36,982 bases of DNA from an uncultured Bacteroidaceae bacterium (GTDB lineage: Bacteria; Bacillota; Clostridia; Christensenellales; CAG-917): assembly GCA_964367645.1 (NCBI GenBank), contig CAYIYN010000002.1:1-36982 (forward strand), written 5' to 3'. This document shows, piece after piece, positions 9,718-31,374 of this stretch (positions are counted from its first letter, which is position 1; each line of letters opens with the position of its first letter). The notes below the pieces were generated by a model. That model saw only the letters and a program-made list of their open reading frames with translations. It was not told the DNA's origin and ran no database searches. A program made the position numbers and the translations under genes.

Positions 9718-10698
9718 TTAAACCATATATTCGCCCGTAAACGCAAGCATCTCTTTTTTGTATGCTTCAGTGTTTTTAAAATAACTCTGTCCGTGCCCCG
9801 TGTTTTCGTACAGCACCAGTTTTTTAGGACTTCCGCAAGCGTTATAACAAGCCTCTCCCATAGAATAAGGCACTGTGGCGTCCTTTTTGCCGTGGACAAA
9901 CATAATCGGCACCTTGCTGTTCTTTACCGATTCAAGCGCGCTGACGCCGTTTAAATCAAACTTTGCAATCGCTTTGCAGAAAAACCCGATGATGTTGAGT
10001 ATCGGAAAAGTTGGGACATGAAACATATTTTTCATCTGATATTCCAATTCCTCTTTCGTTGAGGTAAATCCGCAGTCGGAAATTATGCACTTTACGTTTT
10101 GCGGCAAATCAAGACACGACGCTTCCATAACCGCCGCCGCGCCCATAGAATTGCCTTGCATAACGATTTTATAATCGGGATTTTTATTTACAATTAATTC
10201 CAGCCATTTGAGCAAATCTTTGCCCTCCAACTGAGCAAATCCCGAATAAGCACCTTCGCTTTGTTCATGCGCGCGGTGATTTATCATAAACACGTCAAAA
10301 CCGCTTTCAAGATAAAATCTCGCCTGTGCCGGATATGTATTGTAACAAGTGGAGTTAAATCCGTGCGAAAGCAAAACCGCTTTGTCGGTATCCTTGCCGC
10401 ATTTGTAGAAATATCCGCTCAGTGTAAGACCGTCGTCGGAACGCACGGTTATTCTTTCACTTGGCAACTTTTTTAATTCGACAAGGTTGTCTGCATTAAA
10501 TTTGTTGAGATTGTCAAGTTCTTTCCCCATCATTTTGTAGGTGATGGCATTGGGTTTGTAAACGGCCTTGGGACGAGCAAACAATCTTTTAAAAACCAAA
10601 AGCGACGCTAAAACTAAAAGTAACACCAAACCGAGCACAACACCAAAAACGGTAATAACGATGTCGGTCGTGCTCATTGCTGATAGTATAGAGGTCAT
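9718..10698 (-). CDS. membrane-anchored alpha/beta-fold serine hydrolase
   Basis: 326-aa ORF with an AAGGAGA SD. N-terminal TM helix. HGFNS oxyanion-type motif, nucleophile elbow GNSMGA, and later HGKKDATVP and GHG, consistent with a Ser-Asp-His triad. Confidence 0.75.
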   Translation of the reverse strand: MTSILSAMSTTDIVITVFGVVLGLVLLLVLASLLVFKRLFARPKAVYKPNAITYKMMGKELDNLNKFNADNLVELKKLPSERITVRSDDGLTLSGYFYKCGKDTDKAVLLSHGFNSTCYNTYPAQARFYLESGFDVFMINHRAHEQSEGAYSGFAQLEGKDLLKWLELIVNKNPDYKIVMQGNSMGAAAVMEASCLDLPQNVKCIISDCGFTSTKEELEYQMKNMFHVPTFPILNIIGFFCKAIAKFDLNGVSALESVKNSKVPIMFVHGKKDATVPYSMGEACYNACGSPKKLVLYENTGHGQSYFKNTEAYKKEMLAFTGEYMV

Positions 10699-11068: not shown

Positions 11069-11389
11069 TTATTTGTCCGTATCTTTATTCTCTTCTATTT
11101 CTTTCGGGCTTTTGCACGGAGATTTTTTAACTCCGAAAAAGATTATCGCCACCATAAATGCCGCTATCGAAAAGAAAAGCAACAGCGTTGCAAGTTGCCC
11201 CATAATGTCAGTAATAAAGGGCTTTCTCACAGTCGCGGAATATTCTGCAAACATGAAGGATATTCCGTTAGCTCTGTCGTCGGCGGCATAGTGGAAAAAC
11301 ACATAATTCAACCCGTACATAATGCCGGAAGCGACAAGATTTATCAGTGACAGTAGGTACAGCTTCTTTTTTACAACCTGTTTATCCAT
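11069..11389 (-). CDS. small membrane protein (2-3 TM), unknown function
   Basis: 106-aa ORF starting 4 nt after the stop of the upstream dehydrogenase gene. GAGGA lies 11 nt upstream. It has hydrophobic segments and a charged C-tail. Confidence 0.55.
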   Translation of the reverse strand: MDKQVVKKKLYLLSLINLVASGIMYGLNYVFFHYAADDRANGISFMFAEYSATVRKPFITDIMGQLATLLLFFSIAAFMVAIIFFGVKKSPCKSPKEIEENKDTDK

Positions 11390-11393
11390 GATT

Positions 11394-12332
11394 TTATTTG
11401 TCCTCTTTTATTGCTTTCATGACTTTGATGACTTTCATATTTCTCTTGGCCTGAAGTTCCGCTCTTTCTTGACCGGTATAGTCTTTAAATCCTTTACCTG
11501 ATTTTATGCCGAGTCTTCCCTCTTTTATCATTTCCCCTGCTAATTTCGACGGTGTCATCTTTCTGCTAAGGAAAGGATAAAGCAGTCTTCCTACCTTTGC
11601 GGCAACGTCCCATCCGATATAATCCATAAGTTCAAGCGGACCTTCAAAAGGTGCTTTTAAACCTTGATTGCAGGTGAAAGCGGTGTCCACGTCTTCCATT
11701 GTCACCCAGCCTTTTTCCACCATGTAACTTGCTTCTCTAAGCAGCGCTGCAGTCATGCGGTTGACGATAAATCCGGGTACGTATTTGTTCAAGACGGCAG
11801 GTTTTTTGCCGATTTTTTCCATCAGCGCTCGTATATCCGTGACAAGTTCGGGCGCGGTGCAAGGTCCGCAAACTACCTCCACCAACGGTACGATATGCGA
11901 CGGATTGTTGAAGTGCGTGATTATAACTCTTTCGGGGTGGCTGACTTTTACGACTCCGAAAACGTTCATTGCAGAAGTTGTGCTGGATAGCACGCAGTCA
12001 GGACGGCAAACTTTGTCAAGAGTTGCAAACACCGACGCTTTTATTGCCTTAACTTCAGGCACGGCTTCAATGACCAAATCAGCGTCTTTTGCGGCATCGT
12101 AACTGTCGGAATAGGACAAATGTTTTTCGGTGTTCGCCGCTTGTTCTTCGGTTATAAAATTCTGCTCCAGCATAACGCGCACGTTTGCGGCAACCAGTTT
12201 CTTTGCCGTTTCCAAAGCCTCTTTTTTTACATCTATAACTATTGTATCGTAACCGAATGAGGCAAACGTTTGGGCAATTCCGTGGCCCATTGTGCCTGAA
12301 CCTATTACGGCTATGTTTTTGAATTCTCTCAT
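11394..12332 (-). CDS. NAD-dependent 3-hydroxyacyl-CoA dehydrogenase-fold enzyme (Hbd / L-carnitine dehydrogenase / CRYL1 superfamily)
   Basis: Rossmann motif IAVIGSGTMGHGIAQ. Catalytic-type residues STTS, THFNNPSHIVPLVEV (His, Glu) and GFIVNR. The start is moved to ATG 12332 (MREFKN), 5 nt downstream of AAGGAGA. The TTG at 12347 used by the ORF track lies inside that SD. Confidence 0.8.
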   Translation of the reverse strand: MREFKNIAVIGSGTMGHGIAQTFASFGYDTIVIDVKKEALETAKKLVAANVRVMLEQNFITEEQAANTEKHLSYSDSYDAAKDADLVIEAVPEVKAIKASVFATLDKVCRPDCVLSSTTSAMNVFGVVKVSHPERVIITHFNNPSHIVPLVEVVCGPCTAPELVTDIRALMEKIGKKPAVLNKYVPGFIVNRMTAALLREASYMVEKGWVTMEDVDTAFTCNQGLKAPFEGPLELMDYIGWDVAAKVGRLLYPFLSRKMTPSKLAGEMIKEGRLGIKSGKGFKDYTGQERAELQAKRNMKVIKVMKAIKEDK

Positions 12333-12350
12333 CTTATCTCCTTTCAAAGT

Positions 12351-12387
12351 TTAATTTCTCCGAGAGAATTTTTTTCGGAGAAATTAA
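12351..12387 (-). other. 13-bp stem-loop immediately upstream of the dehydrogenase SD
   Basis: TTAATTTCTCCGA (12351-12363) pairs with TCGGAGAAATTAA (12375-12387). No U-tract follows on the minus strand. It may be an mRNA processing, stability or attenuation element. Confidence 0.5.
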
Positions 12388-12433
12388 CTTGTAGTGCACC
12401 GTTACAGCGTGCGCGCGATACGCGCGCGCGCCG

Positions 12434-12467
12434 AAAATCGGTTTGCCCGATAAGGCAAACCGATTTT
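12434..12467 (-). terminator. intrinsic terminator-like hairpin directly after the ThDP-enzyme stop codon
   Basis: Perfect 14-bp stem AAAATCGGTTTGCC / GGCAAACCGATTTT with loop CGATAA. The stem ends in TTTT on the minus strand. A third GC hairpin (GCGCGCG-ATA-CGCGCGC, about 12410-12426) lies between the two. Confidence 0.55.
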
Positions 12468-12469
12468 AA

Positions 12470-14113
12470 CTAGAATGCGAAGCCTATCTTGACGTCCGTC
12501 ATTACGTTGACAACGGAAGGCTTGTCTTGTGCAAGGGCTCTGTCAATTGCTGCGCCGATGTCTTCAGGTTTGGTTACATATTCGCCGTAACCGCCCAAAT
12601 CTTCAATGACCTTGTCATATCTTACGTCGCGCAGATAAAGTCCGATAAATTCTTTGCCGGGAGCGGCTTTCTTCGCTTCGGAGTTCTTTATCATGCCCCA
12701 GCAGCTGTCGTTTAGAATCACTGTTGTAATCTTGATACCGTAACGCAAGCAGGTGTCATATTCCATTGCACCGTAGCCGAATGCGCCGTCGCCGGTCAGA
12801 AGTATAACTTTTTTGTCGGGGTGAGCCAGTTTTGCGGCTATTGCATAAGGAACGCCCACGCCAAGAGGTCCGAAGCTGCCGTTTGCAATGGTTAACAGTT
12901 GTCCGGGTCCCATTGCGGGCAGAGTCATATTGCCCCAAGATGCGGTGTCGCCGCCGTCTATAACAACAATCGTGTCTTTGTCAATGCGCTTTCTGAGTTC
13001 TGCGCAAAGACGGACGGGGTGAATCGGGATTTGAGGAGAGGTAAATGCCTGTCCCATGAACATCATCATTTGTCCAAGACTGTCTTTGAGCATTCCAATC
13101 CATTCGGTGTGTTTGGCGGGCTTGACTGCGGAAATGAGTTGCTTGAGTATTTCTTTTGCATCGCCCACGACGCCGTGCTTGATGTCAAGCTGGTCAGAAA
13201 TTGCCGCTCCGGCGATGTCTATACGGAGGATAGGTGCGCCCTTCGGGAAAGAGTTTTTGGGAAGGGTGTAACCGGTTCTTGTTCCGAGGACTATGATAAG
13301 GTCGGAGTTATCAATGGCTGCTTGGCAAACGGGGTGTTTGCTTGAACCTATGCAGATTGAGAGCGGGTGAGTGTCAGGAACTATGCCGCGTCCTGCGTTT
13401 CTTGTGAAAATCGGGCAATCGACTTTTTCGATGAATTCGGTCAGTTCTTTTGCCGCATCTGCCCAAAACGCACCGCTGCCCGCGATGACGATAGGGCTCT
13501 TTGCCGCGTCGATAAGTTCTGCCGCTTTTTTGATGTCTTCTGAATTGCCGGCGGGCTTGCCTCTGAAGCGCCAAGTGTCTTGCAGTTCGACTTTGGATTC
13601 GTCATACGCGACCGCTTCCATTTTGTCACGAGGAACTTCAAGGTACACCGGGCCCGGACGATCGTTCATTGTTTCGGCGATAGCTCTGCCGAAATACTCG
13701 GGTATTCTCATTCCGTCGGGAATTTGTCTTGCGTGTTTGCACATGTCGCCAACGAGCGGCATTTGATTGAAGTCTTGAAGTTCGTTGCGATCGAACTCTG
13801 AAACCTTTGCCTTGCCGCCTACGCAAAGAAGCGGAACTTGGTTGCAACTGGCGTTTGCGACACCGGTAATAAGGTTTGTAAATCCGGGGCCTGCCGTGCC
13901 GGTGCACACACCGGTTTTGCCGGTTGTGAGAGCCCAGCCTTCAGCCATGAACGCTGCGTTCATTTCGTGACGGCAACTGATAAATTTAATTCCTGCGTCG
14001 TTGCACGCTTCTACCATAGGATAAATATGTCCGCCGGGAAGTCCGAAGATATATTTTATCCCTTCTTTGGAAAATACTTTTTCTATTAGTTGTCCACCGT
14101 TTAATAATGCCAT
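12470..14113 (-). CDS. thiamine-diphosphate enzyme of the acetolactate synthase / oxalyl-CoA decarboxylase / 2-hydroxyacyl-CoA lyase superfamily
   Basis: 547-aa ORF with an AGGAGG SD. Catalytic-Glu context CRHEMNAAFMAEGW. GTAGPGFTN. ThDP-binding motif GDGAFGYGAMEYDTCLRYGIKITTVILND. NELQDFNQ sits where ALS enzymes have DAFQE and OXC/HACL have DYEELDQ. Confidence 0.8.
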   Translation of the reverse strand: MALLNGGQLIEKVFSKEGIKYIFGLPGGHIYPMVEACNDAGIKFISCRHEMNAAFMAEGWALTTGKTGVCTGTAGPGFTNLITGVANASCNQVPLLCVGGKAKVSEFDRNELQDFNQMPLVGDMCKHARQIPDGMRIPEYFGRAIAETMNDRPGPVYLEVPRDKMEAVAYDESKVELQDTWRFRGKPAGNSEDIKKAAELIDAAKSPIVIAGSGAFWADAAKELTEFIEKVDCPIFTRNAGRGIVPDTHPLSICIGSSKHPVCQAAIDNSDLIIVLGTRTGYTLPKNSFPKGAPILRIDIAGAAISDQLDIKHGVVGDAKEILKQLISAVKPAKHTEWIGMLKDSLGQMMMFMGQAFTSPQIPIHPVRLCAELRKRIDKDTIVVIDGGDTASWGNMTLPAMGPGQLLTIANGSFGPLGVGVPYAIAAKLAHPDKKVILLTGDGAFGYGAMEYDTCLRYGIKITTVILNDSCWGMIKNSEAKKAAPGKEFIGLYLRDVRYDKVIEDLGGYGEYVTKPEDIGAAIDRALAQDKPSVVNVMTDVKIGFAF

Positions 14114-14140
14114 AATTATGCCTCCTATTTGGGATTTTGG

Positions 14141-15874
14141 TTACCAATTACGATAATCGAGATGTTTGTACTTTTCCAGATGTCTTACCGGCAAGTTTAG
14201 CGCGTCGCGTCTGAACGGAGGTGCAAGCTGTGTGCCGTCAACCTCAAATTGAATGACTGTCGGGCGATTGGACGCTATTGCGGATTTAATCGCGGGACCA
14301 ACGTCTTCGGGTTTGTCAACGAATATACCGTTTGCGCCCATAGATTTTGCAACTTCTGCAAAGTTGGGAGCCTCAATATCAACGCCTATAAAGCGGTTGT
14401 CATAGAAATCAATCTGGTTTTTCTTTTCTGCGCACCAGGCGGTGTTGTGGAACACGCAAGATACCGTGGGAATATTTTCTTGAACTGCGGTTGACACTTC
14501 GTGCAAACTCATGCCCCATGCGCCGTCGCCGACGATGTTGATGACCGGGCAGTCGGGACGTGCAAGTTTTGCACCAAGACCGGCAGGATACGAGAATCCG
14601 GTGTTGCCGAAAGTCAAAGCCGCGATGTGCTTTTTGCCTTCGTTGAAGTTGAAATAAGTGTTTGCCGTGGATGCAACGTTTCCGATATCCGTGGCAACTA
14701 TCGTGTTTTCAGGGATTGCTTTTGAGATTTCAAGCAACACTCTGCGGGGATTCATAGGTTTGCCGGGAACCATCGCCAGGTCAACAATTTCTTTTGCAAA
14801 ATCATCTTTTTCCTTTTTGATTTCTGCCAAACGGTCATTATCTATCTTTCGTGTGCCGATTTTTGCTTCGAGCAGTTTCAAAATTTCTATGGAAGCCGCT
14901 TTCGCGTCGCCGATTATACCGACTTCGACAGGGTGCGTACGCGCAATGTTGAGCGGGTTGATGTCGATTTGAATGATTTTTGCCGTTTCCGGGAAATAAT
15001 CGATGTCAAATTGAGGAAGTGTGCCGAAAACCGACAAGCGTGTGCCGATTGCAAGCACGACGTCAGCCTGCGCCATAAGTTTCATGGCCGCTTTGCTGCC
15101 CATATAACCGATAGGGCCTGCCCAAAGAGGATGGTTTTTGGGGAATGCGTCGTTATGAAGGTAAGTGCAAGCAACGGGTGCGGTCAACAGTTCTGCGATT
15201 TTTGCTACGATATCCTGACAATCGGTGTCGACTACGCCGCGTCCCGACACAATAACGGGTTTTTTTGCGCTTGCAAGTATTTCTACCGCTCTTTTTAGCG
15301 ATTCGGGAGCTCCACAACCGCGATCATCGACGCGGTATTGGTGAGGTTCAAGTATATAATCTTCAACTTCGCCGTAGAAATAATCTCTCGGTATGTCCAA
15401 AAGCACCGGCCCGCGAAGTGCATATGCCATGCGGAATGCCGTTCTTGTGCAGTCTGCAGCGCGGGAAGGATGAGGAATTCTGATTGTCGCTTTGGTTATC
15501 GCTTTGAAAACCGAAACCTGATCGCATTCTTGGAAACCGTCCCAACCCACGGATTTTGTTCCTGCCGAGGGAGATATGACTACCATAGGGGTATGTCCCA
15601 TATTCGCGGCCGCAACGGACGTCACCATATTTGTGATTCCGGGACCGTTCTGTCCGATGACGACGCCGGCCTTGCCGCTAATTCTTGAATAGGCGTCTTC
15701 CATGTGAGCTGCGCTCTGTTCATGACGCACGGGGATAAATCTTATACCCGCGGCAGGAAACAGATCCAGCAAATCCATGAATGCCGAACCGACGATACCG
15801 GATACGTGATCAATTCCCTCTGCTACCAGCGTTTCACAAATTGCTTCGCTGGCAATCATTTTTAATTTTTGCAT
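14141..15874 (-). CDS. xsc: sulfoacetaldehyde acetyltransferase-like ThDP enzyme (Xsc, EC 2.3.3.15 candidate)
   Basis: 577-aa ORF with an AAGGAGG SD. Long stretches match my memory of characterised Xsc proteins. These include [73 protein letters not shown]...[25 protein letters not shown], and the C-terminal APPFRRDAL. Confidence 0.7.
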
Positions 15875-15929
15875 TTTGTTGCCTCCTTAAGGTACATTAA
15901 TTGTAATTATATTTTTTTTCTTTCCATAA

Positions 15930-15967
15930 TTTAAGCCCTCGCGCGCTCTGCGCACGTTGGGCTTAAA
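15930..15967 (-). other. intercistronic stem-loop between the symporter and xsc
   Basis: TTTAAGCCC (15930-15938) pairs with GGGCTTAAA (15959-15967), with an inner GCGC/GCGC pairing. No clean U-tract follows on the minus strand, so it is not called a terminator. Confidence 0.45.
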
Positions 15968-15979
15968 GTGTTTGGTCTA

Positions 15980-17545
15980 TCATTCAGCCGAAGTGCCTTC
16001 AGCCAATTCGCCGTAGTCGGACGCTTCCACCGTTTCCGCGACTCCGTCCAAATCCGATGTATCGCCGTCTTGTGCAACATTAATTCCCTTTTTAATTTTT
16101 ATTAGACGCGATATATCGTCGCGGCGAATAAGCCCATACAACACACAAAACAGAACTGTGAATATCACCAGTCCAATTGCAAGTTTTGTATAACTTGCGG
16201 CGACAAACGTCATGAGCAGCATAATCGGCGCGCCCAAAACCAAGGAGTACAAAGTTTGGAAAACCATGTTGTTACAAGCAGGTGTTTTGAAATCAGGATC
16301 GATCTCGCGCAACAAAATTATGCCCGTACTTGCCGTGCCGGTGAGCATTCCGTACATGCAAAGGAAGGATTCTTCATAATAGCCGTCTTTTGCGTACAGG
16401 TGCTTACAAACGTGTTTAACATAGAAATAAGATGCCACACATCCGACCACGGACATTAAAACGAGAGGCACGATAAATTCAGTACGCGCAAATGCAGTGA
16501 GGTCGATTGCACCGAGTGCGGCTACAACCATTACGTCAAAGAACATACCGGACATTCTGTCCAAGAGATAGTTGTTGGTATATTGTTTTTTAACAATTCC
16601 TTTTTTGGTAAGTTTTTTCAAAATGAATTTGAAGAGCATTGCAATTCCGGTGCCGATTATGAAGTTGAATCCCCAAAAGAGCGGTTTTACGGTATTTATC
16701 AAAAAATTAATTCCACTGGCATCGCAGCCCTTACTTATTCCGTATATGAGTGCAAACGACACTGCGTATGCAAGCAATACAAGTCCGAGTTGTACACTGA
16801 ATTTGTCAACGGTTTGTGAAGACGGAATTTCATTTTCGTCAGTAAATGTTTTGACTGTGACTGTTTCTTTGTCTGTATCAACTTTGTCAACAAACTTGAC
16901 GTTCCCCTTTCTGCGCTCTTTATTGAGGTAAATTACGCCACCGATACTCGCCGACACAAAGCCCATAGCGGCAATAGTCAGACCGAAGCTCTTTCCTCCT
17001 GCGAAGGCGCCGAACTCGCTGCTAATCATATTTTCGTAATTCATTCCCCAGTTGAATGCTTGTCCGGGTCCTTGACCGAAACCCATCGGCAAAAGCATTC
17101 CCGATGCCGCCCAACTGCCGATAGCAAAAGAAAGTATTAAGGATATTATCAATCCTAATATACCTTGCATAAGATACGAAGATACCGTAATAAGCGAACT
17201 GTTAAATATTGCTTTCTGCGCTTTCTTGCCGCTTAACTTCTCTTGTGATTTAAGAGCAACGGCAATAAAACCCATTCCCAAGCAGTGGTAAGTCAGCATT
17301 TCCAAAATAAACGTATTGAAAAGCGGTTTTCCTGCGATTGACTGATAAACAGCTAATACGGCTAGCAAAATAAATCCGCCTAAGACCGGACTGGGAATGA
17401 GTGCTTTACGTAGTGGTTTAATCATTTTTATAAGCGCGTTTGCGATGAGCAAGACAACAAAAATGGCTGTCATAACTAGAACAAACGCCCAAAAATTAAG
17501 ATCATCAAATTGCATAGTAATATATGCATTATAGAATTCTTGCAT
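15980..17545 (-). CDS. GltS/ESS-family sodium:solute symporter homologue (521 aa)
   Basis: Polytopic ORF with an AAGGGGGA SD. IPSPVLGGFILLAVLAV resembles E. coli GltS IPEPVAGGLLVAL. YGMLTGTASTGIILLREIDPDF resembles GltS GHCGFGLGATPTAIANMQAI. It has a longer central loop and an acidic C-tail. Confidence 0.65.
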   Translation of the reverse strand: MQEFYNAYITMQFDDLNFWAFVLVMTAIFVVLLIANALIKMIKPLRKALIPSPVLGGFILLAVLAVYQSIAGKPLFNTFILEMLTYHCLGMGFIAVALKSQEKLSGKKAQKAIFNSSLITVSSYLMQGILGLIISLILSFAIGSWAASGMLLPMGFGQGPGQAFNWGMNYENMISSEFGAFAGGKSFGLTIAAMGFVSASIGGVIYLNKERRKGNVKFVDKVDTDKETVTVKTFTDENEIPSSQTVDKFSVQLGLVLLAYAVSFALIYGISKGCDASGINFLINTVKPLFWGFNFIIGTGIAMLFKFILKKLTKKGIVKKQYTNNYLLDRMSGMFFDVMVVAALGAIDLTAFARTEFIVPLVLMSVVGCVASYFYVKHVCKHLYAKDGYYEESFLCMYGMLTGTASTGIILLREIDPDFKTPACNNMVFQTLYSLVLGAPIMLLMTFVAASYTKLAIGLVIFTVLFCVLYGLIRRDDISRLIKIKKGINVAQDGDTSDLDGVAETVEASDYGELAEGTSAE

Positions 17546-17569
17546 AATGAGTCCCCCTTATTTCGTCAT

Positions 17570-17600
17570 CATTATAACACGCTCCAGATTATAATGTAAA
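17570..17600 (-). promoter_or_regulatory. promoter of the symporter-xsc operon overlapped by a 27-bp palindrome
   Basis: Read on the minus strand: TTTACA (17595-17600), 18-bp spacer, TATAAT (17571-17576). The palindrome CATTATAA-N11-TTATAATG (17570-17596) covers the -10 box and the spacer and runs 2 nt into the -35 box. A third CATTATAAT copy lies at 17620-17628. Confidence 0.5.
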
Positions 17601-17669
17601 GTATGCCTTTTGTTAAGAACATTATAATCAAAAGCTAATATTTGAGCTTAAAAAAACCAAAATTTTGTT

Positions 17670-17700
17670 GAAAAAGCGGTGCTTTTTTTACGACACCGCT
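17670..17700 (-). terminator. intrinsic terminator of the LysR-type regulator gene
   Basis: Minus strand: AGCGGTG-(12-nt loop)-CACCGCT followed by TTTTT. Stem arms are at 17675-17681 and 17694-17700. Confidence 0.7.
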
Positions 17701-17727
17701 ATGTTTTTCATTGTAAATACGTTAATA

Positions 17728-18615
17728 TCAACTTTCGCGCCTTGAGCTGTCGTAGCACGCTTTTACAAACCTTTTCATTGAATTAGTAAAGTATTTATCT
17801 TTGTGATATATAAGTTTGAACGATCTTGTGAGTTTTGCGTCGCTTATTCCGCACATCCAAAGTTCGCCTTTTTCCACGTCTTCTTCGACAAGTTTTTCAG
17901 ATATAACCGTTACCCCAAGGTTTTCTTTAACTGCTTTAATAACTATATCGGTGCTGCAACAACTCCATCTGACCTTTGCGCGATATCCGGCTCCTTCAAG
18001 CTGTTCAAGAAATTGAACTCTCGTGCCGCTGCCCTCTTCTCTTAAAACAAGAGGAATATTGTCGAGATCTCTAAGCGATATGGATTCGCGCCCGTAAAAA
18101 GCGTGTTTTGGAGAACAGGCAAGGACAAGTTTGTCATCGATAATTATCTCGGAGCGCAAATCGTCGCTTGTTATTTCACCCTCTACATAACCTATATCCA
18201 AGTCGTTTGATAAGATCTTTTTTTCTATAAGCCGAGTGTTTCCTATTAGTACAGAATAATTAAAATATTGGTCGCTTGCCGATAGTTCGGCAACCATCTT
18301 TTTTAAAAGCGATGCGCCCACGGTGACTGACGTGCCTATCCTAATTCGCGCATTTCTCGAATCGTGCATAAGAGTGCTGCGCATCTCCGTCTCCAAATTG
18401 AGGATATTTCTGGCGTATGATATAACGTCACTTCCCACTGCGGTCAAATGCAAACCGTTTTTGAGTCTGTCAAAGAGCAACACACCGTATTCCTTTTCAA
18501 TATCAGAAACCGTCTGGCTGACAGAAGACTGTGTTATGTTGAGTTTTGCGGCCGCTTTGCTCATGTTTCCGCACTCTACAATTGCCATAAGTATCTCTAA
18601 ACTTCTTATTGTCAT
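17728..18615 (-). CDS. LysR-type transcriptional regulator
   Basis: N-terminal wHTH MTIRSLEILMAIVECGNMSKAAAKLNITQSSVSQTVSDIEKEYGVLLFDR plus a C-terminal substrate-binding domain. The start is moved to ATG 18615, downstream of AGGAGG. The upstream 20 codons in the ORF track have no SD. Confidence 0.85.
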   Translation of the reverse strand: MTIRSLEILMAIVECGNMSKAAAKLNITQSSVSQTVSDIEKEYGVLLFDRLKNGLHLTAVGSDVISYARNILNLETEMRSTLMHDSRNARIRIGTSVTVGASLLKKMVAELSASDQYFNYSVLIGNTRLIEKKILSNDLDIGYVEGEITSDDLRSEIIIDDKLVLACSPKHAFYGRESISLRDLDNIPLVLREEGSGTRVQFLEQLEGAGYRAKVRWSCCSTDIVIKAVKENLGVTVISEKLVEEDVEKGELWMCGISDAKLTRSFKLIYHKDKYFTNSMKRFVKACYDSSRRES

Positions 18616-18680
18616 TTGGACACCTCCTTTCCAAATTTTAATGTAAATACAACAAAGTGTCAATGCAATTTTCAACTATC

Positions 18681-18698
18681 CATAAGGAAAAACTTATG
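18681..18698. promoter_or_regulatory. inverted repeat CATAAG-N6-CTTATG, candidate LysR recognition site
   Basis: Perfect 6-bp arms at 18681-18686 and 18693-18698. The centre lies about 66 bp upstream of the TSS predicted from the asr promoter. Confidence 0.4.
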
Positions 18699-18720
18699 AA
18701 GCCTTTAGGATTTTTCGTAC

Positions 18721-18749
18721 TTTACACTTCGACACGACAAAGTTATACT
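18721..18749 (+). promoter_or_regulatory. sigma-A type promoter of the asr operon
   Basis: TTTACA (18721-18726), 17-bp spacer, TATACT (18744-18749). This implies a leader of about 130 nt before ATG 18887. Confidence 0.5.
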
Positions 18750-18886
18750 ACTTTTAGATATGCAATACGGGCATAAAGAAAACAACAGCAACAAATAAAG
18801 AAGGATTGAACCAAATTTGAAAAGCCATGAGATTGATTTTTGGGCGTTTCACGATTTGGCGCATCCTAAGTTAAAAGGAGGAAAAT

Positions 18887-19207
18887 ATGAATTTTTTGAC
18901 AGGAAAGTGGAAAATCGTTGCTCATTCGCCGCTTGGTGACATGGCTCTCACGGCCGACTTCGTGGTTGACGAAAGCACATCCACGTTTACAGGATCCGTC
19001 TATGACGAAGGCAACAAGAAGACTTACGGGGTCTCAAACGGTGTAATAAACGACCATCACATTTCCTACGATATGCTCATCAAATTCGGCCTTATCCCGT
19101 TCAGCTTCCATCTTGAAGGCGACTTCAAAGATGACGGAACTTGCACGGGCGAAGCCAAAGCTATGAAGATGACGGGCACTTACGAAGGCTACAAAGTTGT
19201 CGAATAA
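18887..19207 (+). CDS. small soluble protein (106 aa), possible calycin/lipocalin-like beta-barrel, unknown function
   Basis: Strong AAGGAGG SD. N-terminal GKWKI (G-x-W, as in calycins), then alternating beta-strand-like pattern. It is the first gene of the asr transcription unit, 18 nt before asrA. Confidence 0.6.
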   Translation: MNFLTGKWKIVAHSPLGDMALTADFVVDESTSTFTGSVYDEGNKKTYGVSNGVINDHHISYDMLIKFGLIPFSFHLEGDFKDDGTCTGEAKAMKMTGTYEGYKVVE

Positions 19208-19225
19208 CTTTTAAAGGAGAAAGAC

Positions 19226-20254
19226 ATGGGTTATAAGTTTTCCGAAGCCAAATCCAAAGAGTTGTTCTCTAAGCTTGCGGAGCGTTATGACATTTATGCG
19301 CCAAAACGCTTCCCTTGTGCAGGACGCTATTCGGATACGGACATCATCAAATATGACAAAATTTCCTCTTTTGACGAAATAGTCACTTCCGAGAAGTCGA
19401 CTTATCCTATGAAAGAGGTCTTGTCACCGATACAGCAGGCTCTGTTCTATTTCACCGAGGACGAATACCGCGAGAGCAAATGCTCAACAAAGCCGATGCT
19501 CGTTTTTGCTCGTCCTTGCGATATCAACGCCATGCAAGTGCAGGCTCGCATCTATGCGGGAAACGGCGGCTTTACAGATATGTATTACGAGCGCATGCGT
19601 GAGCGCGTTCACTATGCATTATTGGAATGCCACGGCGACGACGATACTTGTTTTTGCGTCAGCATGGGAACAAACACAACCGACGATTACTCTGTTGCTT
19701 TCCACTTTGAAAACGGCGAAGTTGTTGTAAAGCCCAACTGCAAAGAGATTGAAGAACTGTTTGCGGACGGTGAAAAATGCGATTATGAACCTAAATTCAT
19801 CACCGAAAACATCACCAAAGTCACAGTGCCCGAAATCGACAGCAAAGAAGTGCTCAACAAACTCAAAGCGCATCCTATGTGGAAAGAATTTGACGGGCGC
19901 TGCATTTCATGCGGAGCATGCACGGTCGCTTGCTCCACTTGCACTTGCTTCACCACCCGCGACATTATATACGGGGACAACCCCGAAGTGGGCGAAAGAC
20001 GCCGAGTGACATCTTCTTGTCAAGTTGACGGATTTTCCACAATGGCAGGCGGCGCGTCTTTCAGAAAGACGGCAGGCGAAAAAATGCGCTTCAAAATGCT
20101 ACATAAATTCCACGACTATAAGGCTCGCTTCGGCGATATGCATATGTGCGTTGGCTGTGGACGGTGCACTCACCGCTGTCCCGAACTCATCTCGATAACC
20201 GCTACGCTTGGAAAAATGGCGGCGGCTGTCGAAGAAATCAAAAAAGAGTGTTAG
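19226..20254 (+). CDS. asrA: anaerobic sulfite reductase subunit A (ferredoxin-like, two 4Fe-4S motifs)
   Basis: 342 aa with an AAGGAGA SD. Cluster motifs CISCGACTVACSTCTC and CVGCGRCTHRCP. Size and gene order (A-B-C) match Salmonella AsrA. Confidence 0.8.
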   Translation: MGYKFSEAKSKELFSKLAERYDIYAPKRFPCAGRYSDTDIIKYDKISSFDEIVTSEKSTYPMKEVLSPIQQALFYFTEDEYRESKCSTKPMLVFARPCDINAMQVQARIYAGNGGFTDMYYERMRERVHYALLECHGDDDTCFCVSMGTNTTDDYSVAFHFENGEVVVKPNCKEIEELFADGEKCDYEPKFITENITKVTVPEIDSKEVLNKLKAHPMWKEFDGRCISCGACTVACSTCTCFTTRDIIYGDNPEVGERRRVTSSCQVDGFSTMAGGASFRKTAGEKMRFKMLHKFHDYKARFGDMHMCVGCGRCTHRCPELISITATLGKMAAAVEEIKKEC

Positions 20255-20266
20255 GAGGGCGATATA

Positions 20267-21058
20267 ATGTATAATCCCATTCAACCCGTACCCTGCAAAA
20301 TTCTTGATGTCAGACACGAAACTCATTTGGAGTATACCTTCAGAGTGGAAACAGACATTAAACCCCAGCACGGGCAATTTGTACAACTTTCCATTCCGAA
20401 GATCGGCGAAGCCCCCATTTCCGTTTCCGAACAAGGCGACGGTTGGCTTGAATTTACAATCAGGAAAGTCGGCAAAGTTACAAACGTCATTTTTGACAAA
20501 CAAGCCGGCGACACTCTGTTTTTGAGAGGACCTTACGGAAAAGGCTGGCCCATGGAGCAATTCAAGGGCAAACACCTCGTTGTTATCGCGGGCGGCACCG
20601 GCGTATCTCCGGTCAGAAGTTTACTTAACTACTGCTGCAAGAACAAAGGCTTTGTTCAAAGCGTTAATCTGGTTTGCGGTTTCAAAAACGCAGACTGTGT
20701 GCTGTTTGAGAACGACTTGGCAAATTGGAACAAAGGCTTTGACACCACGTTCTGTCTTGATAACGAAGAAAAATGCGGCTTCAAGAAAGGAATGGTCACC
20801 ACAGTCATAAAAGATATCCCTCTTAAGGATTTCGGTGAAGATTACGCAGTCGTCGTCGTCGGACCTCCGATTATGATGAAGTGTGTCGGACTTGAATTGC
20901 TCAAGTGCGGATTTGACGAAAGCAAAATTTGGATGTCTTTTGAAAGAAAGATGTCCTGCGCCATAGGCAAATGCGGACATTGCCGTATAGACGAAGTTTA
21001 CGTCTGTCTCGACGGACCCGTATTCCCCTACACCGTCGCCAAAAACTTGGTGGACTAG
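20267..21058 (+). CDS. asrB: anaerobic sulfite reductase subunit B (FAD/NAD(P)-binding, 2Fe-2S)
   Basis: 263 aa with an AGGAGG SD. Ferredoxin-reductase-type domains (RKVGKVT, VVIAGGTGVSP) and a C-terminal cluster motif CAIGKCGHCRI...C. Confidence 0.8.
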   Translation: MYNPIQPVPCKILDVRHETHLEYTFRVETDIKPQHGQFVQLSIPKIGEAPISVSEQGDGWLEFTIRKVGKVTNVIFDKQAGDTLFLRGPYGKGWPMEQFKGKHLVVIAGGTGVSPVRSLLNYCCKNKGFVQSVNLVCGFKNADCVLFENDLANWNKGFDTTFCLDNEEKCGFKKGMVTTVIKDIPLKDFGEDYAVVVVGPPIMMKCVGLELLKCGFDESKIWMSFERKMSCAIGKCGHCRIDEVYVCLDGPVFPYTVAKNLVD

Positions 21059-21068
21059 GAGGTAGAAT

Positions 21069-22136
21069 ATGAATCACGATATATACATCAAAAAAGTTAG
21101 ATTAAATTGCTTCCGCGAGTCCAAAATTCCCGGAGAATTTATGTTGCAGATGAGAGTCCCCGGCGGTATGGTTGACGCAAAATATCTTGCACATGTACAA
21201 CATATAGCCAAAACTTGGGGCGATGGCAATTTCCACTTCGGCACACGTCAGGCGTTTGAAATTTGCCGCATAAAATATGAAGATATTCCCGCCGTCAATG
21301 AGTATTTGGAAACATATATCAAAGAAGTTGAAACAGACCTCTGCGGCGTTGATATGGAATCCATCGCGGGCGAAAAAGCCAAGTGGTACCCAAAGAGCGG
21401 ATATCCCACAATCGGTGCGAGAAATATTTCGGCGTGCATCGGCAACTACCATTGCATTTGCGGAAACGTCGATACGTTTGCTCTTGCAAGAAAAATCGAG
21501 CCGCTGATTTTCCCCAGCCATTATCACATCAAGATAAATATCGCAGGTTGCGCAAACGACTGCAACAAAGCTCATCTTTGCGACTTCGGTATCATAGGCG
21601 AAGCGCTTCTGGACTACCATTCTGAACGTTGCATAGGCTGCGGACTTTGCGCCAAAACTTGCGAACACCATGCAACAAGAGTGCTCTCGTTGAACGAGGA
21701 AACAGGCAAAATCGATAAGGATCCTTGCTGCTGCGTCGGCTGCGCCGAATGCGCTCGCCACTGCCCCACTTCGGCTTGGACAAGAAATCCTCAAAAGTTC
21801 TACAAAGTTATCTTGGGCGGCAGAACCGGACGTCAAACTCCTCGAACCGGCAAGATGTTCTTGAACTGGGCAACCGAAGAAACCATTCTCGCCGTTCTTG
21901 GAAACTGGCAAAAATTCTCTGCGTGGGTTATGGACTACAAGCCCGAATACCTGCACGGCGGACACCTTATCGACAGAGCCGGATACAAGAAATTCAAAGA
22001 GCTTATGCTTGATGGCATAACACTAAATCCGGAATGCTTGGTGGCTGAGGATATCTACTGGCACGAAACCGAATACAGAAGCAACTTCAATGTAAAAGAC
22101 CTAAAATTGCACCACACGGCAGGCCCTCAAAAATAG
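21069..22136 (+). CDS. asrC: anaerobic sulfite reductase subunit C (siroheme / 4Fe-4S catalytic subunit)
   Basis: 355 aa with an AGGAGG SD. Sulfite/nitrite reductase cluster-siroheme motif C-x5-C (CIGNYHC) ... C-x3-C (CANDC), plus an inserted 2x[4Fe-4S] ferredoxin domain (CIGCGLCAKTCE, CVGCAECARHCP). Confidence 0.85.
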   Translation: MNHDIYIKKVRLNCFRESKIPGEFMLQMRVPGGMVDAKYLAHVQHIAKTWGDGNFHFGTRQAFEICRIKYEDIPAVNEYLETYIKEVETDLCGVDMESIAGEKAKWYPKSGYPTIGARNISACIGNYHCICGNVDTFALARKIEPLIFPSHYHIKINIAGCANDCNKAHLCDFGIIGEALLDYHSERCIGCGLCAKTCEHHATRVLSLNEETGKIDKDPCCCVGCAECARHCPTSAWTRNPQKFYKVILGGRTGRQTPRTGKMFLNWATEETILAVLGNWQKFSAWVMDYKPEYLHGGHLIDRAGYKKFKELMLDGITLNPECLVAEDIYWHETEYRSNFNVKDLKLHHTAGPQK

Positions 22137-22153: not shown

Positions 22154-22186
22154 GGCGAGCGGTGATAATCCCGTTCGCCGTTTTTG
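22154..22186 (+). terminator. intrinsic terminator of the asr operon
   Basis: Stem GGCGAGCGG (22154-22162) / CCGTTCGCC (22171-22179, one G-U pair) followed by GTTTTT. Confidence 0.65.
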
Positions 22187-22191
22187 CAGAT

Positions 22192-23169
22192 ATGAAACGT
22201 ATACTATTGCACAATAAAGCTCTTTTGTTCACTTTGGCGTTTATTATGACGCTCCTTCTTTTCGTACCACTTTTTTCTGCTTGCAACCCTAAAAGCGATT
22301 TGAACGCAGGCGACATTTCTGTGACGGACAGCACAGGCTATTCCGTTGCGTTTGATTTTACGCCAACGCGCGTGGTTGCCTTGCAAGCCTCCGTTGCGGA
22401 CGTTTGGCTGCTTGCCGGCGGAAACATTGTCGGCGTTTCTGACGATTATCTTGATTACGGCCTTATGGTCGAGAACGTTACCGTTATTGGCGAAACTCAT
22501 TACACCAATGAAGAATACATCATCAGTTTAAATCCCGATTTGGTTATATATTCAGCAAAACACGACAAAACTGTTGTTGACGAATTAAAAGCCGTGGGGA
22601 TAAAAACTTTTGGCGCGGAAGTCGAAAATTTTTCGGATTATTTGTTCGTTCTTGGTCAATTCTGCAAACTGACCGGAAGAGATGATTTATATCAGTCAAA
22701 CGGATTGGACGTTAAAGAAGAAATTGATACGATAATTTCAACTGTGCCTCAAAACGAATCTTCTTCGGTGCTGTTTTTAAGAACCCGCTCCGCGGGCGCG
22801 CCTACCGTGATTGCCGGCGGACACTTTGTTTGTGAACTGATTAAGGACTTGGGGGCGACAAACGTCGCGGCAACCGATTCAAATGAAGGCAATCTCACGT
22901 TCTCTATGGAAGAGGTCATAAATCAAAATCCCGATTTCATTCTCATTACATTTATGGGTGTCAACAATGTCACCAAGTCAAAACAATGGCTTGAAGACAA
23001 TATATTTTCCAGCACGACGTGGCAATCACTTGATGCCGTAAAAAACGACAAGGTAGTATATTTGTACGACGAAGAAAATTTGGACCGCGCGCATCTTTTC
23101 CAATACAAACCAAATGCAAGATGGGCAGAATCCTATCAATACCTCTACGATGTCCTCTATCCAGCATAA
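22192..23169 (+). CDS. ABC transporter substrate-binding lipoprotein (Fe-siderophore/heme/cobalamin-type, PBP cluster A)
   Basis: Start set at ATG 22192 (MKRILL...LFSAC lipobox), because the GTG at 22162 lies inside the asr terminator stem. RVVALQASVADVWLLAGGNIVGVSDD is typical of the FecB/BtuF fold family. Confidence 0.75.
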   Translation: MKRILLHNKALLFTLAFIMTLLLFVPLFSACNPKSDLNAGDISVTDSTGYSVAFDFTPTRVVALQASVADVWLLAGGNIVGVSDDYLDYGLMVENVTVIGETHYTNEEYIISLNPDLVIYSAKHDKTVVDELKAVGIKTFGAEVENFSDYLFVLGQFCKLTGRDDLYQSNGLDVKEEIDTIISTVPQNESSSVLFLRTRSAGAPTVIAGGHFVCELIKDLGATNVAATDSNEGNLTFSMEEVINQNPDFILITFMGVNNVTKSKQWLEDNIFSSTTWQSLDAVKNDKVVYLYDEENLDRAHLFQYKPNARWAESYQYLYDVLYPA

Positions 23170-24160: not shown

Positions 24161-24929
24161 CAATCTCAGCGTTAATATAGGCGAAAAGAATATATTAAAC
24201 CGTGTTTGTGCTATTTTAGACAGCGGTTCGATAACCTGTATTTTAGGCCCTAACGGAAGCGGAAAAACCACACTTTTGCGTGCTGTGGACGGGATTATCA
24301 AGTGCGAAGGAACGGTCTTATATAACGGCGAAGACGTGCTTGCTTTGCCCGTTAAAGAGCGTGCAAAGTTAATTGCGTTTCTGCCGCAAAATCGCCCTGT
24401 ACTCCAAATTGAAGGGGGGTTGCTCATTGAACACGGAAGATTTCCGCATATGAGTTTTATGAAGAAACTGGGCGAGAAAGACCATCTTGCCATCGAGAAT
24501 GCAATAAAACTTACGGAAACTGAACACCTTGTGGCCAAACCTCTTGGCAAAATGTCGGGAGGCGAACAACAGCGTATCTATATTGCATGCGCGCTTGCCC
24601 AAGAAACGGACGTTCTCCTTTTGGACGAGCCTACCACGCACCTTGACCTTCAAAGCCAAATTGAAATTTTGGAACTGATGAAAAAACTTAAAGCCGCAGG
24701 GAAAACCGTTGTTGCTGTTTTGCATGATCTTGCACAAGCTTTTTCTGTCGCCGATAAAATTTTGCTTTTGCAAAGCGGTTCGGCTGTCGACTGCGGCGCT
24801 CCCGACGAGCTTATCGAGAGGGGAAAAATCAAAGAGGCTTTTGGATACAATCTTATAAAAGACGATTCGCCAAACGCCCTCTACCCATTCAAATTGCTAA
24901 ATTTAAGCGAAGAAAATCAAACTGATTAA
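24147..24929 (+). CDS. ABC transporter ATP-binding protein
   Basis: Walker A GPNGSGKTT, signature MSGGEQQR, Walker B LLLDEPTTHLD. The start is moved to TTG 24147, 7 nt after AGGAGG, overlapping the permease stop by 14 nt. The Ser-rich extension in the ORF track is rejected. Confidence 0.8.
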   Translation: MLQIDNLSVNIGEKNILNRVCAILDSGSITCILGPNGSGKTTLLRAVDGIIKCEGTVLYNGEDVLALPVKERAKLIAFLPQNRPVLQIEGGLLIEHGRFPHMSFMKKLGEKDHLAIENAIKLTETEHLVAKPLGKMSGGEQQRIYIACALAQETDVLLLDEPTTHLDLQSQIEILELMKKLKAAGKTVVAVLHDLAQAFSVADKILLLQSGSAVDCGAPDELIERGKIKEAFGYNLIKDDSPNALYPFKLLNLSEENQTD

Positions 24930-31338: not shown

Positions 31339-31345
31339 AACAGAA

Positions 31346-31374
31346 ATTATACCTTGACACTCCCAACTTGTCAA
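31346..31374 (-). promoter_or_regulatory. consensus sigma-A promoter abutting the start codon (leaderless transcript predicted)
   Basis: Minus strand: TTGACA (31369-31374), exactly 17 bp, TATAAT (31346-31351), then TTCTGTT, then ATG (31338). Confidence 0.65.

Follow-up and report, generated by a model that had tools for sequence, protein, structure and literature searches.

The window analysed here, a 36,982-nt stretch of contig CAYIYN010000002.1, holds two divergent transcription units that flank the gene of a LysR-type transcriptional regulator (LTTR). On the minus strand lie lysR and an operon containing xsc, the gene for sulfoacetaldehyde acetyltransferase, and on the plus strand lies a unit containing asrABC, the genes for a sulfite reductase. 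Sequence comparison identifies Xsc, AsrABC and LysR and gives the layout of the operons and the conservation of their neighbourhoods. We consider it rather probable that the locus is a LysR-controlled catabolic island that converts organosulfonate to sulfide in an uncultured anaerobic Firmicute and works via a sulfolactate route.

Organization of the locus

The xsc operon is composed of five genes with intergenic gaps of 105, 27, 137 and 4 nt. The first gene encodes an ESS/GltS-like transporter of 521 aa (15980–17545, minus strand) and is followed by xsc (14141–15874, minus strand), whose product is a thiamine diphosphate (ThDP) enzyme of 577 aa. The third gene (12470–14113, minus strand) encodes a second, three-domain ThDP enzyme of 547 aa, which we call ThDP547, and the fourth (11394–12332, minus strand) encodes a 3HCDH-family NAD(H) enzyme of about 312 aa, called HCDH here, with the true start at the ATG at 12332, preceded by AAAGGAG. 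The last gene (11069–11389, minus strand), read from the list of open reading frames (ORFs) and its translation, encodes a 106-aa membrane protein with two helices; it starts 4 nt past the HCDH gene and is conserved only in two related loci, L001 (91%) and L010 (35%).

The plus-strand unit starts with the gene of a soluble 106-aa protein, s106b (18887–19207), and continues with asrA (19226–20254), asrB (20267–21058), asrC (21069–22136) and the genes of a FecB/FecCD/FecE-type ABC importer (binding protein, permease and ATPase; 22162–24929). The spacings in this unit are 10–25 nt: asrA starts 18 nt past s106b, asrA and asrB are separated by 12 nt, asrB and asrC by 10 nt, and the importer starts 25 nt past asrC. 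The regulator gene lysR (17728–18618, minus strand) lies between the two units, and the ribosome-binding sites in the window are of the GGAGG type. All of the ORFs named in an earlier note on this DNA are present where it had placed them; it did not mention the transporter, the second ThDP enzyme, the 3HCDH-like dehydrogenase and the 106-aa gene before asrA.

Identity of Xsc

The 577-aa protein matches TIGR03457, 'sulfoacetaldehyde acetyltransferase', with 823.8 bits (cutoff 676.4) over the complete model (1–579 of 579), and NF005713 with 840.5 bits (cutoff 620). It carries all three Pfam ThDP domains (N, M and C) and is 70–87% identical to homologues of Syntrophomonadaceae, Desulfitobacterium, Bacillus/Peribacillus and Smithellaceae, and an exact-sequence look-up of the protein returned no identical record. 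E483 lies six residues past the asparagine that ends the ThDP-binding motif, a spacing that we take to be that of the E473-type glutamate of pyruvate decarboxylase (PDC); the residue was placed by this motif spacing and not by alignment to the Xsc entry Q84H41. The survey of the pyruvate-oxidase (POX) family in PMC13327070 lists the glutamate of the active-site helix at that position as E510 in Xsc (Q84H41).

The protein shares its generic three-domain architecture with acetolactate synthases (ALS), and automatic annotation frequently gives such ThDP proteins the ALS label. The reading as an ALS, or as another ThDP enzyme that is not Xsc, is nevertheless effectively refuted. The best ALS model reaches 389.5 bits, below its cutoff of 538 and far from the score of TIGR03457, so the protein does not cluster with the acetolactate synthases; the high identity to Xsc homologues extends across phyla, and E483 occupies the position that the table in PMC13327070 assigns to Xsc. 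By sequence, the protein is thus a genuine sulfoacetaldehyde acetyltransferase, as the earlier note had proposed, and it is predicted to form acetyl phosphate and sulfite from sulfoacetaldehyde and inorganic phosphate (Pi).

AsrABC and its linkage to xsc

The three adjacent asr genes each score above the equivalog cutoff with end-to-end coverage of the model: asrA with 404.5 bits against TIGR02910 (cutoff 323.15), asrB with 341.2 bits against TIGR02911 (cutoff 288.6) and asrC with 338.8 bits against TIGR02912 (cutoff 324.1). The cofactor domains expected for AsrABC are all found. AsrA, the Fe–S subunit, contains Fer4_22, the FAD/NAD(H)-binding subunit AsrB contains NAD_binding_1 and the Fe–S domain DHODB_Fe-S_bind, and AsrC, the catalytic subunit of the NIR_SIR type, contains the 4Fe–4S domains NIR_SIR and NIR_SIR_ferr together with the ferredoxin domain Fer4. 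From these assignments, AsrABC would reduce sulfite to sulfide at the expense of NADH. The start of xsc is 3.35 kb from that of asrA, so the complete asrABC set, the distance of about 3 kb and the divergent arrangement around LysR are all as the earlier note had described them.

To place this linkage among related loci, we surveyed 80 Xsc loci, scanning one genome per species (Xsc 70–98% identical) and searching with all window proteins. Five other genomes, which show two arrangements, have a complete asrABC set no more than 10 kb from xsc. The loci L008, L010 and L013, on the contigs JACKCW010000002, JAKSOR010000011 and DBYK01000001 of metagenome-assembled genomes (MAGs) of Bacillales and Clostridia, with L010 from horse faeces, share the layout of the window: ABC importer, asrCBA and s106b, then lysR, transporter, xsc, ThDP547 and HCDH. 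In L004 and L005, which are Firmicutes/Bacillota MAGs (L004 is HGW-Firmicutes-16), asrCBA is convergent and lies downstream of HCDH. The linkage that the earlier note expected is therefore conserved in related genomes, within a single clade. Since it is kept through rearrangement, we argue for function rather than inherited synteny.

The proximity of asrABC could also come without functional coupling, if Asr served general sulfite respiration or detoxification and merely adjoined the sulfonate operon. Most of the Xsc loci, including those of Bacillus, Peribacillus, Desulfitobacterium and Smithellaceae, show no asr within 10 kb, and the pair of s106b and LysR also occurs in loci without asr, so the asr genes look like a later addition to the divergent unit. 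We nevertheless regard an uncoupled Asr as very improbable. Five genomes keep the linkage in two arrangements, asrA begins 18 nt past s106b in a unit that diverges from lysR and carries an LTTR-like box, and sister lineages place other genes of sulfite reduction beside the same cassette. The Syntrophomonadaceae loci have it next to DsrMK-type genes, DsrC and NrfHA, and in a Smithellaceae locus DsrK/O/P-like genes, ackA and xsc lie in a row, with acetate kinase as the ATP-yielding step that the earlier note postulated. Such combinations with Dsr-complex genes, DsrC or NrfHA point to repeated selection for Xsc next to a sulfite reductase.

Transporter, ThDP547 and HCDH

The transporter has a weak match to Pfam Glt_symporter and a hydrophobic, multi-pass translation, and some of its homologues are labelled 'ESS family glutamate:Na+ symporter'. 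At 47–66% identity, orthologues are found at the corresponding place in L004, L005, L008, L009, L010, L013, L086 and L095. Homologues of about 50% identity are also found as stand-alone genes of Clostridia, whose neighbours give no clue to the substrate. We propose that the protein is an organosulfonate importer.

ThDP547 is 28% identical to the neighbouring Xsc and remains below all family cutoffs. The best NCBIfam match is PRK05858 with 403.4 bits (cutoff 587), followed by the models for 2-hydroxyacyl-CoA lyase (HACL; NF058623, 316.8 bits, cutoff 600), ALS (TIGR00118, 314.2 bits, cutoff 538), Xsc (287 bits, cutoff 676) and oxalyl-CoA decarboxylase (OXC; NF006721, 267.6 bits, cutoff 557, and TIGR03254, 243.7 bits, cutoff 739.4). 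The nearest solved structures are those of HACL/OXC with 284 bits, and benzaldehyde lyase (BAL)/formolase reaches 209 bits. The ThDP motif is GDG441...ND469; Ile475 stands at the position of the PDC/Xsc glutamate, and Q113 is invariant in the family alignment. By motif spacing and a sequence motif of OXC, not by superposition of structures, Gln113 matches the position of Glu121 in OXC and Ile475 matches the E493-type glutamate of the HACL AcHACL. The reference catalytic residues (E493 of AcHACL, E121 of OXC and E510 of Xsc) are those given in the table of PMC13327070. At least 120 database proteins are homologous to ThDP547 at an identity of at least 56%; their names go no further than 'thiamine pyrophosphate-binding protein' or an acetolactate synthase label assigned automatically.

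The family scores and the active-site positions led us to reject ThDP547 as a second Xsc, an ALS or an OXC/HACL. A relation to sulfopyruvate decarboxylase ComDE was also considered and rejected. ComDE consists of two small subunits or a fusion of them, is related to phosphonopyruvate decarboxylase and lacks the central TPP_enzyme_M domain, whereas ThDP547 contains this domain, and its best 25 NCBIfam matches are to ALS, HACL, OXC, POX and Xsc, with no ComD or ComE among them. We propose that ThDP547 may be a sulfopyruvate decarboxylase that forms sulfoacetaldehyde; it would then be a non-orthologous replacement of ComDE.

HCDH contains the Pfam domains 3HCDH_N (E = 7e-52) and 3HCDH (E = 3.2e-21). 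Its best NCBIfam match is FHMPC dehydrogenase with 230 bits (cutoff 500), then 3-hydroxyacyl-CoA dehydrogenase with 226 bits (cutoff 508) and a further model with 219 bits (cutoff 429), and the nearest PDB entry is 4om8. No subfamily cutoff is exceeded among Hbd, PaaH, FadB, carnitine dehydrogenase and FHMPC dehydrogenase, so HCDH is a member at the level of the superfamily. We propose it as a putative 3-sulfolactate dehydrogenase.

Neighbourhoods of ThDP547

The surroundings of ThDP547 orthologues give a second view of this module. We compiled 25 non-redundant loci that have 3 kb or more on either side, drawn from genomes, exact-protein look-ups and a metagenome scan. A 3HCDH-like gene lies within 4 kb of the orthologue in 23 of the 25 loci and a transporter is nearby in 24 (6 ESS-like and 18 of the MFS type). 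Xsc is present in 17, AsrABC in four and DsrC in four. A zinc-dependent alcohol dehydrogenase occurs in three, and the combination of aldehyde dehydrogenase, SucCD-like ADP-forming ligase and DASS transporter in one, a cluster that represents four near-identical loci. The trio of transporter, dehydrogenase and ThDP enzyme is kept across Firmicutes and Spirochaetes, and the genes downstream of it vary.

In the Spirochaete-labelled locus L086 (6516–17052; also L090–L092), LysR, an ESS-like transporter, a ThDP547 orthologue and a 3HCDH gene are followed by a SauS-like aldehyde dehydrogenase, a SucCD-like ADP-forming ligase and a DASS transporter, and the locus contains no Xsc. The aldehyde dehydrogenase matches NF047625, 'acylating sulfoacetaldehyde dehydrogenase SauS', best, with 532 bits (cutoff 600; next family 403). 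This type of locus appears to be a variant for fermentation, with sulfoacetate excreted and ATP gained. The account in PMC11489063 gives the architecture of Aldedh with PF08442/PF02629 as that of HpfX/HpfYZ, the counterpart of SqwD/SqwKL.

In the Smithellaceae locus L031 (4640–17835), the order is DsrK/O/P-like genes, ackA, xsc, a short-chain dehydrogenase/reductase (SDR), a ThDP enzyme designated ThDP585, an MFS transporter, a zinc-dependent alcohol dehydrogenase and TetR. ThDP585 shares 38% identity and its NCBIfam profile with ThDP547, and the dehydrogenase is non-orthologous. In about 20 Smithella/Syntrophaceae loci, this ThDP homologue recurs at a distance of about 2.6 kb downstream from the start of xsc. 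By analogy, L031 would be a comparable feeder module, from a different phylum, in which the dehydrogenase is swapped and the logic is kept.

Three fates of sulfoacetaldehyde are known: desulfonation by Xsc, oxidation to sulfoacetate with formation of ATP, and reduction to isethionate. The downstream partners of the trio match these three fates, so the trio most likely makes sulfoacetaldehyde, and we infer from this pattern that transporter, dehydrogenase and ThDP547 form a feeder module whose product is taken up by exchangeable enzymes.

Regulation and s106b

LysR contains the Pfam domains HTH_1 and LysR_substrate, so the regulator that the earlier note placed between the two units is present. 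The long ORF spans 17728–18675, but all NCBIfam alignments begin at its residue 20–21, and the ATG at 18618 stands behind GGAGG; this ATG is probably the real start. Orthologues of LysR lie upstream of the transporter in L004, L005, L008, L010, L013, L086 and L095. After lysR, a terminator-like hairpin read from the sequence (GCGGTG...CACCGC followed by TTTTTC; 17670–17699, minus strand) precedes the xsc operon, and comparable hairpins follow lysR in L004, L005, L008 and L095. With such a hairpin, lysR and the xsc operon would be separate transcription units.

A perfect inverted repeat with 11-nt arms, GATTATAATGT-N21-ACATTATAATC, lies upstream of the xsc operon at 17587–17629 (arms 17587–17597 and 17619–17629) and overlaps two strong promoter-like matches, whose hexamers lie at 17571–17629 on the minus strand. 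The counts from the promoter and terminator scans equal the shuffled expectation, so single sites of these kinds are merely consistent with the model and are not evidence for it. The earlier note had described palindromes close to the promoters of both units. This holds on the xsc side; in the divergent region between lysR and s106b, the repeat finder returned no inverted repeat, and the region holds only a 5 + 5 dyad.

This dyad, ATAAG-GAAAAA-CTTAT (18682–18697), resembles an LTTR box and is the sole exact match to ATARG-N6-CYTAT in the 37-kb window. It is flanked by the promoter-like site of lysR (18663–18635, minus strand) and that of s106b and asr (18721–18749, plus strand). Boxes of the form ATA[AG]G-N5/6-C[CT]TAT also occur in the intergenic regions next to lysR in L004, L005, L008, L086 and L095, and by a rough estimate such a box is expected well under once in the approximately 3.5 kb of intergenic DNA scanned. 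The candidate box is a short dyad, and the xsc promoter of the window has the different 11-nt inverted repeat instead. The recurrence of the box suggests that ATAAG-N6-CTTAT is a putative LysR operator, and from the layout LysR would control both units.

The first gene of the divergent unit, s106b, has no family match in NCBIfam or Pfam. Its AlphaFold2 model is an eight-stranded β-barrel with a pLDDT of 91.5, for which Foldseek finds the Cap15 β-barrel 7n34 as the best match (E = 4.8e-4), followed by barrels of the FABP/calycin type. The modelled fold is one that possibly binds a small ligand. Homologues of s106b diverge from lysR in the asr-less loci L086, L090–L092, L095 and L096, and L089 has a homologue with no lysR match in that locus. 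These asr-less pairs indicate that lysR and s106b are the ancestral pair, to which asrABC and the ABC importer were appended in the clade of the window.

Proposed pathway

Our best guess for the route is 3-sulfolactate → sulfopyruvate → sulfoacetaldehyde + CO2. The ESS-like symporter would import a hydroxy-sulfonate, most likely 3-sulfolactate. HCDH would then use NAD+ to oxidize the secondary alcohol group of this compound, β to the sulfonate, so that 3-sulfopyruvate and NADH are formed. ThDP547, as a relative of OXC/HACL, would convert sulfopyruvate to sulfoacetaldehyde and CO2, and Xsc would convert sulfoacetaldehyde and Pi to acetyl phosphate and sulfite. An acetate kinase encoded outside the window would form acetate and ATP from acetyl phosphate and ADP, and AsrABC would reduce sulfite to sulfide with three NADH. 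The net reaction would be sulfolactate + 2 NADH + ADP + Pi → acetate + CO2 + HS− + ATP + 2 NAD+. Each sulfonate would thus provide one ATP by substrate-level phosphorylation and a net sink for two NADH, which would suit a fermentative gut anaerobe without Dsr. The route from Xsc to AsrABC that the earlier note had read from this DNA is supported in this scheme; the source of the sulfoacetaldehyde, and with it the conserved enzymes of the same operon, had been overlooked.

Several features agree with sulfolactate as the substrate. The sequence sulfolactate, sulfopyruvate, sulfoacetaldehyde and Xsc is an established route in aerobes, which use other enzymes for the first two steps (SlcD or ComC, then ComDE). 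For a decarboxylase, oxalyl-CoA (CoA-S-CO-COO−) and sulfopyruvate (−O3S-CH2-CO-COO−) are close analogues. The hydroxyl group of sulfolactate is β to the sulfonate and mirrors the β-hydroxy-acid substrates of 3HCDH-family enzymes. The MFS partners of the module fall into the D-galactonate and aromatic-acid types of organic-acid symporters, in agreement with a hydroxy-acid substrate, and the variant with a zinc-dependent alcohol dehydrogenase agrees with sulfolactate since the conversion of sulfolactate to isethionate and CO2 is redox-neutral. The steps by SlcD/ComC and ComDE are given in the summaries of PMC12330013 and PMC11489063.

A number of observations weigh against this interpretation. 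ThDP547 and HCDH are both below every curated family cutoff, with no enzyme activity known, and their nearest relatives act on CoA esters, while the cluster has no CoA ligase or transferase. In ThDP547, Ile475 replaces the glutamate that protonates the carbanion in PDC, HACL and Xsc, so the mechanism of aldehyde release is not obvious. The sequence does not separate sulfolactate from 2,3-dihydroxypropane-1-sulfonate (DHPS) or another β-hydroxy sulfonate, and four loci (L088, L114, L125 and L131) contain the transporter, the dehydrogenase and the ThDP enzyme only, with no recognizable sulfonate gene nearby. The xsc–asr linkage is confined to one clade, pta and ackA are not in the window, so that the ATP-yielding step rests on genes beyond it, and the 11-nt inverted repeat was rejected as a conserved operator, as it is not kept in L004, L005, L008, L010, L013, L086 and L095. 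With regard to the replaced glutamate, the table in PMC13327070 lists OXC, benzoylformate decarboxylase and BAL as likewise lacking it.

Two other schemes were considered. A CoA-dependent route, in which a HACL-like ThDP547 would split sulfolactyl-CoA into formyl-CoA and sulfoacetaldehyde, is chemically attractive but was discarded, as no CoA ligase or transferase is present in any Xsc-type cluster. In the other case, the pathway would consist of Xsc and AsrABC only: sulfoacetaldehyde would come from taurine or isethionate via genes elsewhere, and ThDP547 and HCDH would be passengers with a role in, for example, 2-hydroxyacyl-CoA or branched-chain metabolism. The characterized relatives of both enzymes are CoA-ester enzymes, some of their loci lack any sulfonate gene, and the Syntrophomonadaceae cluster has a class-III aminotransferase and an SDR that could feed Xsc from taurine or isethionate. 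We judge this unlikely, since the genes are tightly packed with xsc in one operon (ThDP547 follows xsc after 27 nt), Xsc recurs in 17 of the 25 ThDP547 loci and is replaced in others by a SauS-like sulfoacetaldehyde dehydrogenase, and the Xsc-type clusters lack a CoA-activating enzyme. The cluster of the window contains no aminotransferase or isethionate dehydrogenase, so that Xsc would be left without a source of substrate in its own regulon.

The chemistry of the two enzymes could also differ from that of our proposal. HCDH would then oxidize DHPS or another β-hydroxy sulfonate to a β-keto sulfonate such as 3-hydroxy-2-oxopropanesulfonate, and ThDP547 would act as a C–C lyase of the HACL or benzaldehyde-lyase type that frees sulfoacetaldehyde and a C1 or C2 fragment in place of CO2. 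The nearest relatives of ThDP547 by bit score, HACL and BAL/formolase, are lyases; Gln113 stands at the OXC Glu121 position, as it does in BAL by motif comparison and the table of PMC13327070; enzymes of the 3HCDH and SDR families typically oxidize secondary alcohols; and two of the minimal loci have a class II aldolase and a transaldolase nearby. The DHPS-2-dehydrogenases HpsO and HpsP are among the enzymes that PMC12330013 names. However, cleavage of the ketone derived from DHPS would give formaldehyde, and no detoxification gene is found in any cluster. The loci with a zinc-dependent alcohol dehydrogenase and the organic-acid-type MFS partners also agree with sulfolactate, and we know of no natural enzyme that cleaves a DHPS ketone in this way. 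A lyase reaction is thus fairly improbable, and decarboxylation of sulfopyruvate remains the chemistry that we prefer.

Beyond the window, we put forward with some hesitation, and slightly on the doubtful side of even, the wider proposal that the trio is an undescribed and widespread two-enzyme route to sulfoacetaldehyde in anaerobes. It would combine a 3HCDH-family dehydrogenase of sulfolactate or another β-hydroxy sulfonate, a decarboxylase or lyase of the POX/HACL type and a transporter that always accompanies the two enzymes with interchangeable fates of the product, and in the window it would be wired by LysR to AsrABC, independently of Dsr. If this is true, the fates that plug into the module would be desulfonation by Xsc, conversion to sulfoacetate with ATP by SauS and an ADP-forming ligase, and reduction to isethionate by an alcohol dehydrogenase.

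Other features of the window

The 137-nt spacer between ThDP547 and HCDH (12333–12469) contains three hairpins, one a GC-rich palindrome (CGCGCGCG), which could be processing or attenuation sites inside the operon. The sole match of the Rfam and tRNA scans is tRNA-Asn at 7303–7378; neither a riboswitch nor any further RNA element turned up in the region.

The ABC importer, assigned from family matches, also follows asrC directly in L008, L010 and L013. It is probably co-transcribed with asr, and as a speculation it may supply iron, haem or corrinoid to the Fe–S/sirohaem enzyme. On the other side, a gap of 370 nt beyond the xsc operon is followed by an α/β hydrolase (9718–10698, minus strand) and a GPH-family (MFS_2) symporter (8169–9692, minus strand), both assigned from family matches. 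The pair keeps its position in L001 (93–94%) and L010 (58–59%), and it is possibly an associated system for uptake and hydrolysis that imports a conjugate from which the sulfonate is released.

In L001 (CAYJCS010000019.1), the proteins of the shared genes are 91–98% identical to those of the window, except for a partial transporter (83%). The contig was submitted as part of an 'uncultured Bacteroidaceae' MAG; its gene content and relatives indicate a Firmicute, and the bin assignment is probably wrong.

Two long ORFs, at 2087–6451 (plus strand, 1454 aa) and 29533–31374 (minus strand, 613 aa), have no Pfam or NCBIfam matches. At 32425–36909, the minus strand carries dnaN and a gene for a RecF-like ATPase with parA and parB in between, and this set indicates that the contig adjoins a replication origin. 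The cumulative GC skew drops over nearly the entire window with no lasting switch.

Significance

Production of H2S from sulfonates of the diet and the host is usually ascribed to Dsr-carrying Desulfovibrionaceae with glycyl radical sulfo-lyases. With a self-contained island of Xsc and AsrABC, Clostridia-type bacteria of herbivore guts, digesters and groundwater would form a second class of H2S producers, and a fermentative pathway from sulfonate to H2S that does not depend on Dsr would escape surveys that use dsrAB, islA, suyAB and hpsG as markers. These points bear on the field of sulfonates and gut H2S. The trio of ThDP547, 3HCDH enzyme and transporter provides a specific enzymological hypothesis, in which C3 sulfonates reach sulfoacetaldehyde by a non-orthologous path, and the variants of the trio with Xsc, with SauS and a ligase, or with an alcohol dehydrogenase would couple one feeder module to desulfonation, ATP-yielding oxidation or redox-balancing reduction. 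For annotation, the at least 120 entries that now have a generic ThDP or automatic acetolactate synthase name would receive a functional one.

Comparison with known systems

Roseovarius nubinhibens and related aerobes reportedly possess a bifurcated sulfolactate pathway, said to have been described by Denger et al. in 2009. The pathway, with SlcD/ComC, ComDE, Xsc and Pta, has the same chemistry as that proposed here, with Xsc as the desulfonating hub. However, the dehydrogenase of the window belongs to the 3HCDH family and not to the Ldh_2 or FMN type, and the putative decarboxylase is a single 547-aa enzyme with three domains of the POX/HACL type, in contrast to the two-subunit ComDE. The host here is an anaerobic Firmicute in which sulfite would be reduced by the linked AsrABC and not exported or oxidized. 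The enzymes SlcD/ComC and ComDE are among those listed in PMC12330013.

In the sulfonate respiration of Bilophila wadsworthia and Desulfovibrio, Tpa/SarD/IslAB or SuyAB are combined with DsrAB (PMC6386719, PMC6453916). The island of the window resembles these systems in the intracellular desulfonation of an organosulfonate and in the use of sulfite as an electron acceptor with H2S as the product. The C–S bond, however, would be cleaved here by the oxygen-tolerant, ThDP-dependent Xsc and not by a glycyl radical enzyme, and the reductase would be the cytoplasmic, NADH-linked AsrABC in place of the membrane-coupled DsrAB/DsrMKJOP, with ATP from acetyl phosphate. Desulfonispora thiosulfatigenes ferments taurine with Xsc (Denger et al. 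2001, as cited in PMC6453916). It is likewise a strictly anaerobic Gram-positive bacterium that gains ATP via acetyl phosphate with Xsc, but its pathway leads from taurine to thiosulfate, and no linked Asr, ThDP547 or 3HCDH enzyme is known to have been described for it.

The AsrABC of Salmonella and Clostridium has the same order of asrA, asrB and asrC and the same domain content as that of the window. Here, however, the genes lie behind a β-barrel gene in a unit that diverges from LysR, are followed by a FecBCD-type importer and are linked to a sulfonate operon. Modules for sulfoacetaldehyde oxidation, SqwD/SqwKL and SauS/SauCD, and the analogous HpfX/HpfYZ, are presented in PMC11489063 and PMC10413351. 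The SauS/SqwD modules are resembled by the Spirochaete-type sister loci, in which ThDP547 and HCDH precede the SauS-like, SucCD-like and DASS genes, whereas the window has Xsc instead; the sister-locus enzyme, at 532 bits, is under the SauS cutoff of 600. Among solved structures, OXC and HACL (PDB entries 8vzc, 7pt1 and 2c31) are the closest relatives of ThDP547 and share its three-domain fold family. ThDP547 differs from them in its scores under the family cutoffs, in Gln at the position of OXC E121, in Ile at that of the AcHACL/PDC glutamate and in the lack of an accompanying CoA-activating enzyme.

The role of Xsc as a hub, the occurrence of Asr in Clostridia and Enterobacteria and the use of sulfonate-derived sulfite as an electron acceptor are established (PMC6453916), and metagenomic surveys had already suggested that xsc and asr co-occur at the genome level (PMC9016944, PMC12019592). 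The idea is therefore not as little explored as the earlier note had it. The full-text literature outside subscription journals gave no description of a physical xsc–asr cluster or of a route by ThDP547 and a 3HCDH enzyme. In summary, what appears to be new is an operon-level, co-regulated Xsc–AsrABC island and, more important, the uncharacterized enzymes that would feed it.

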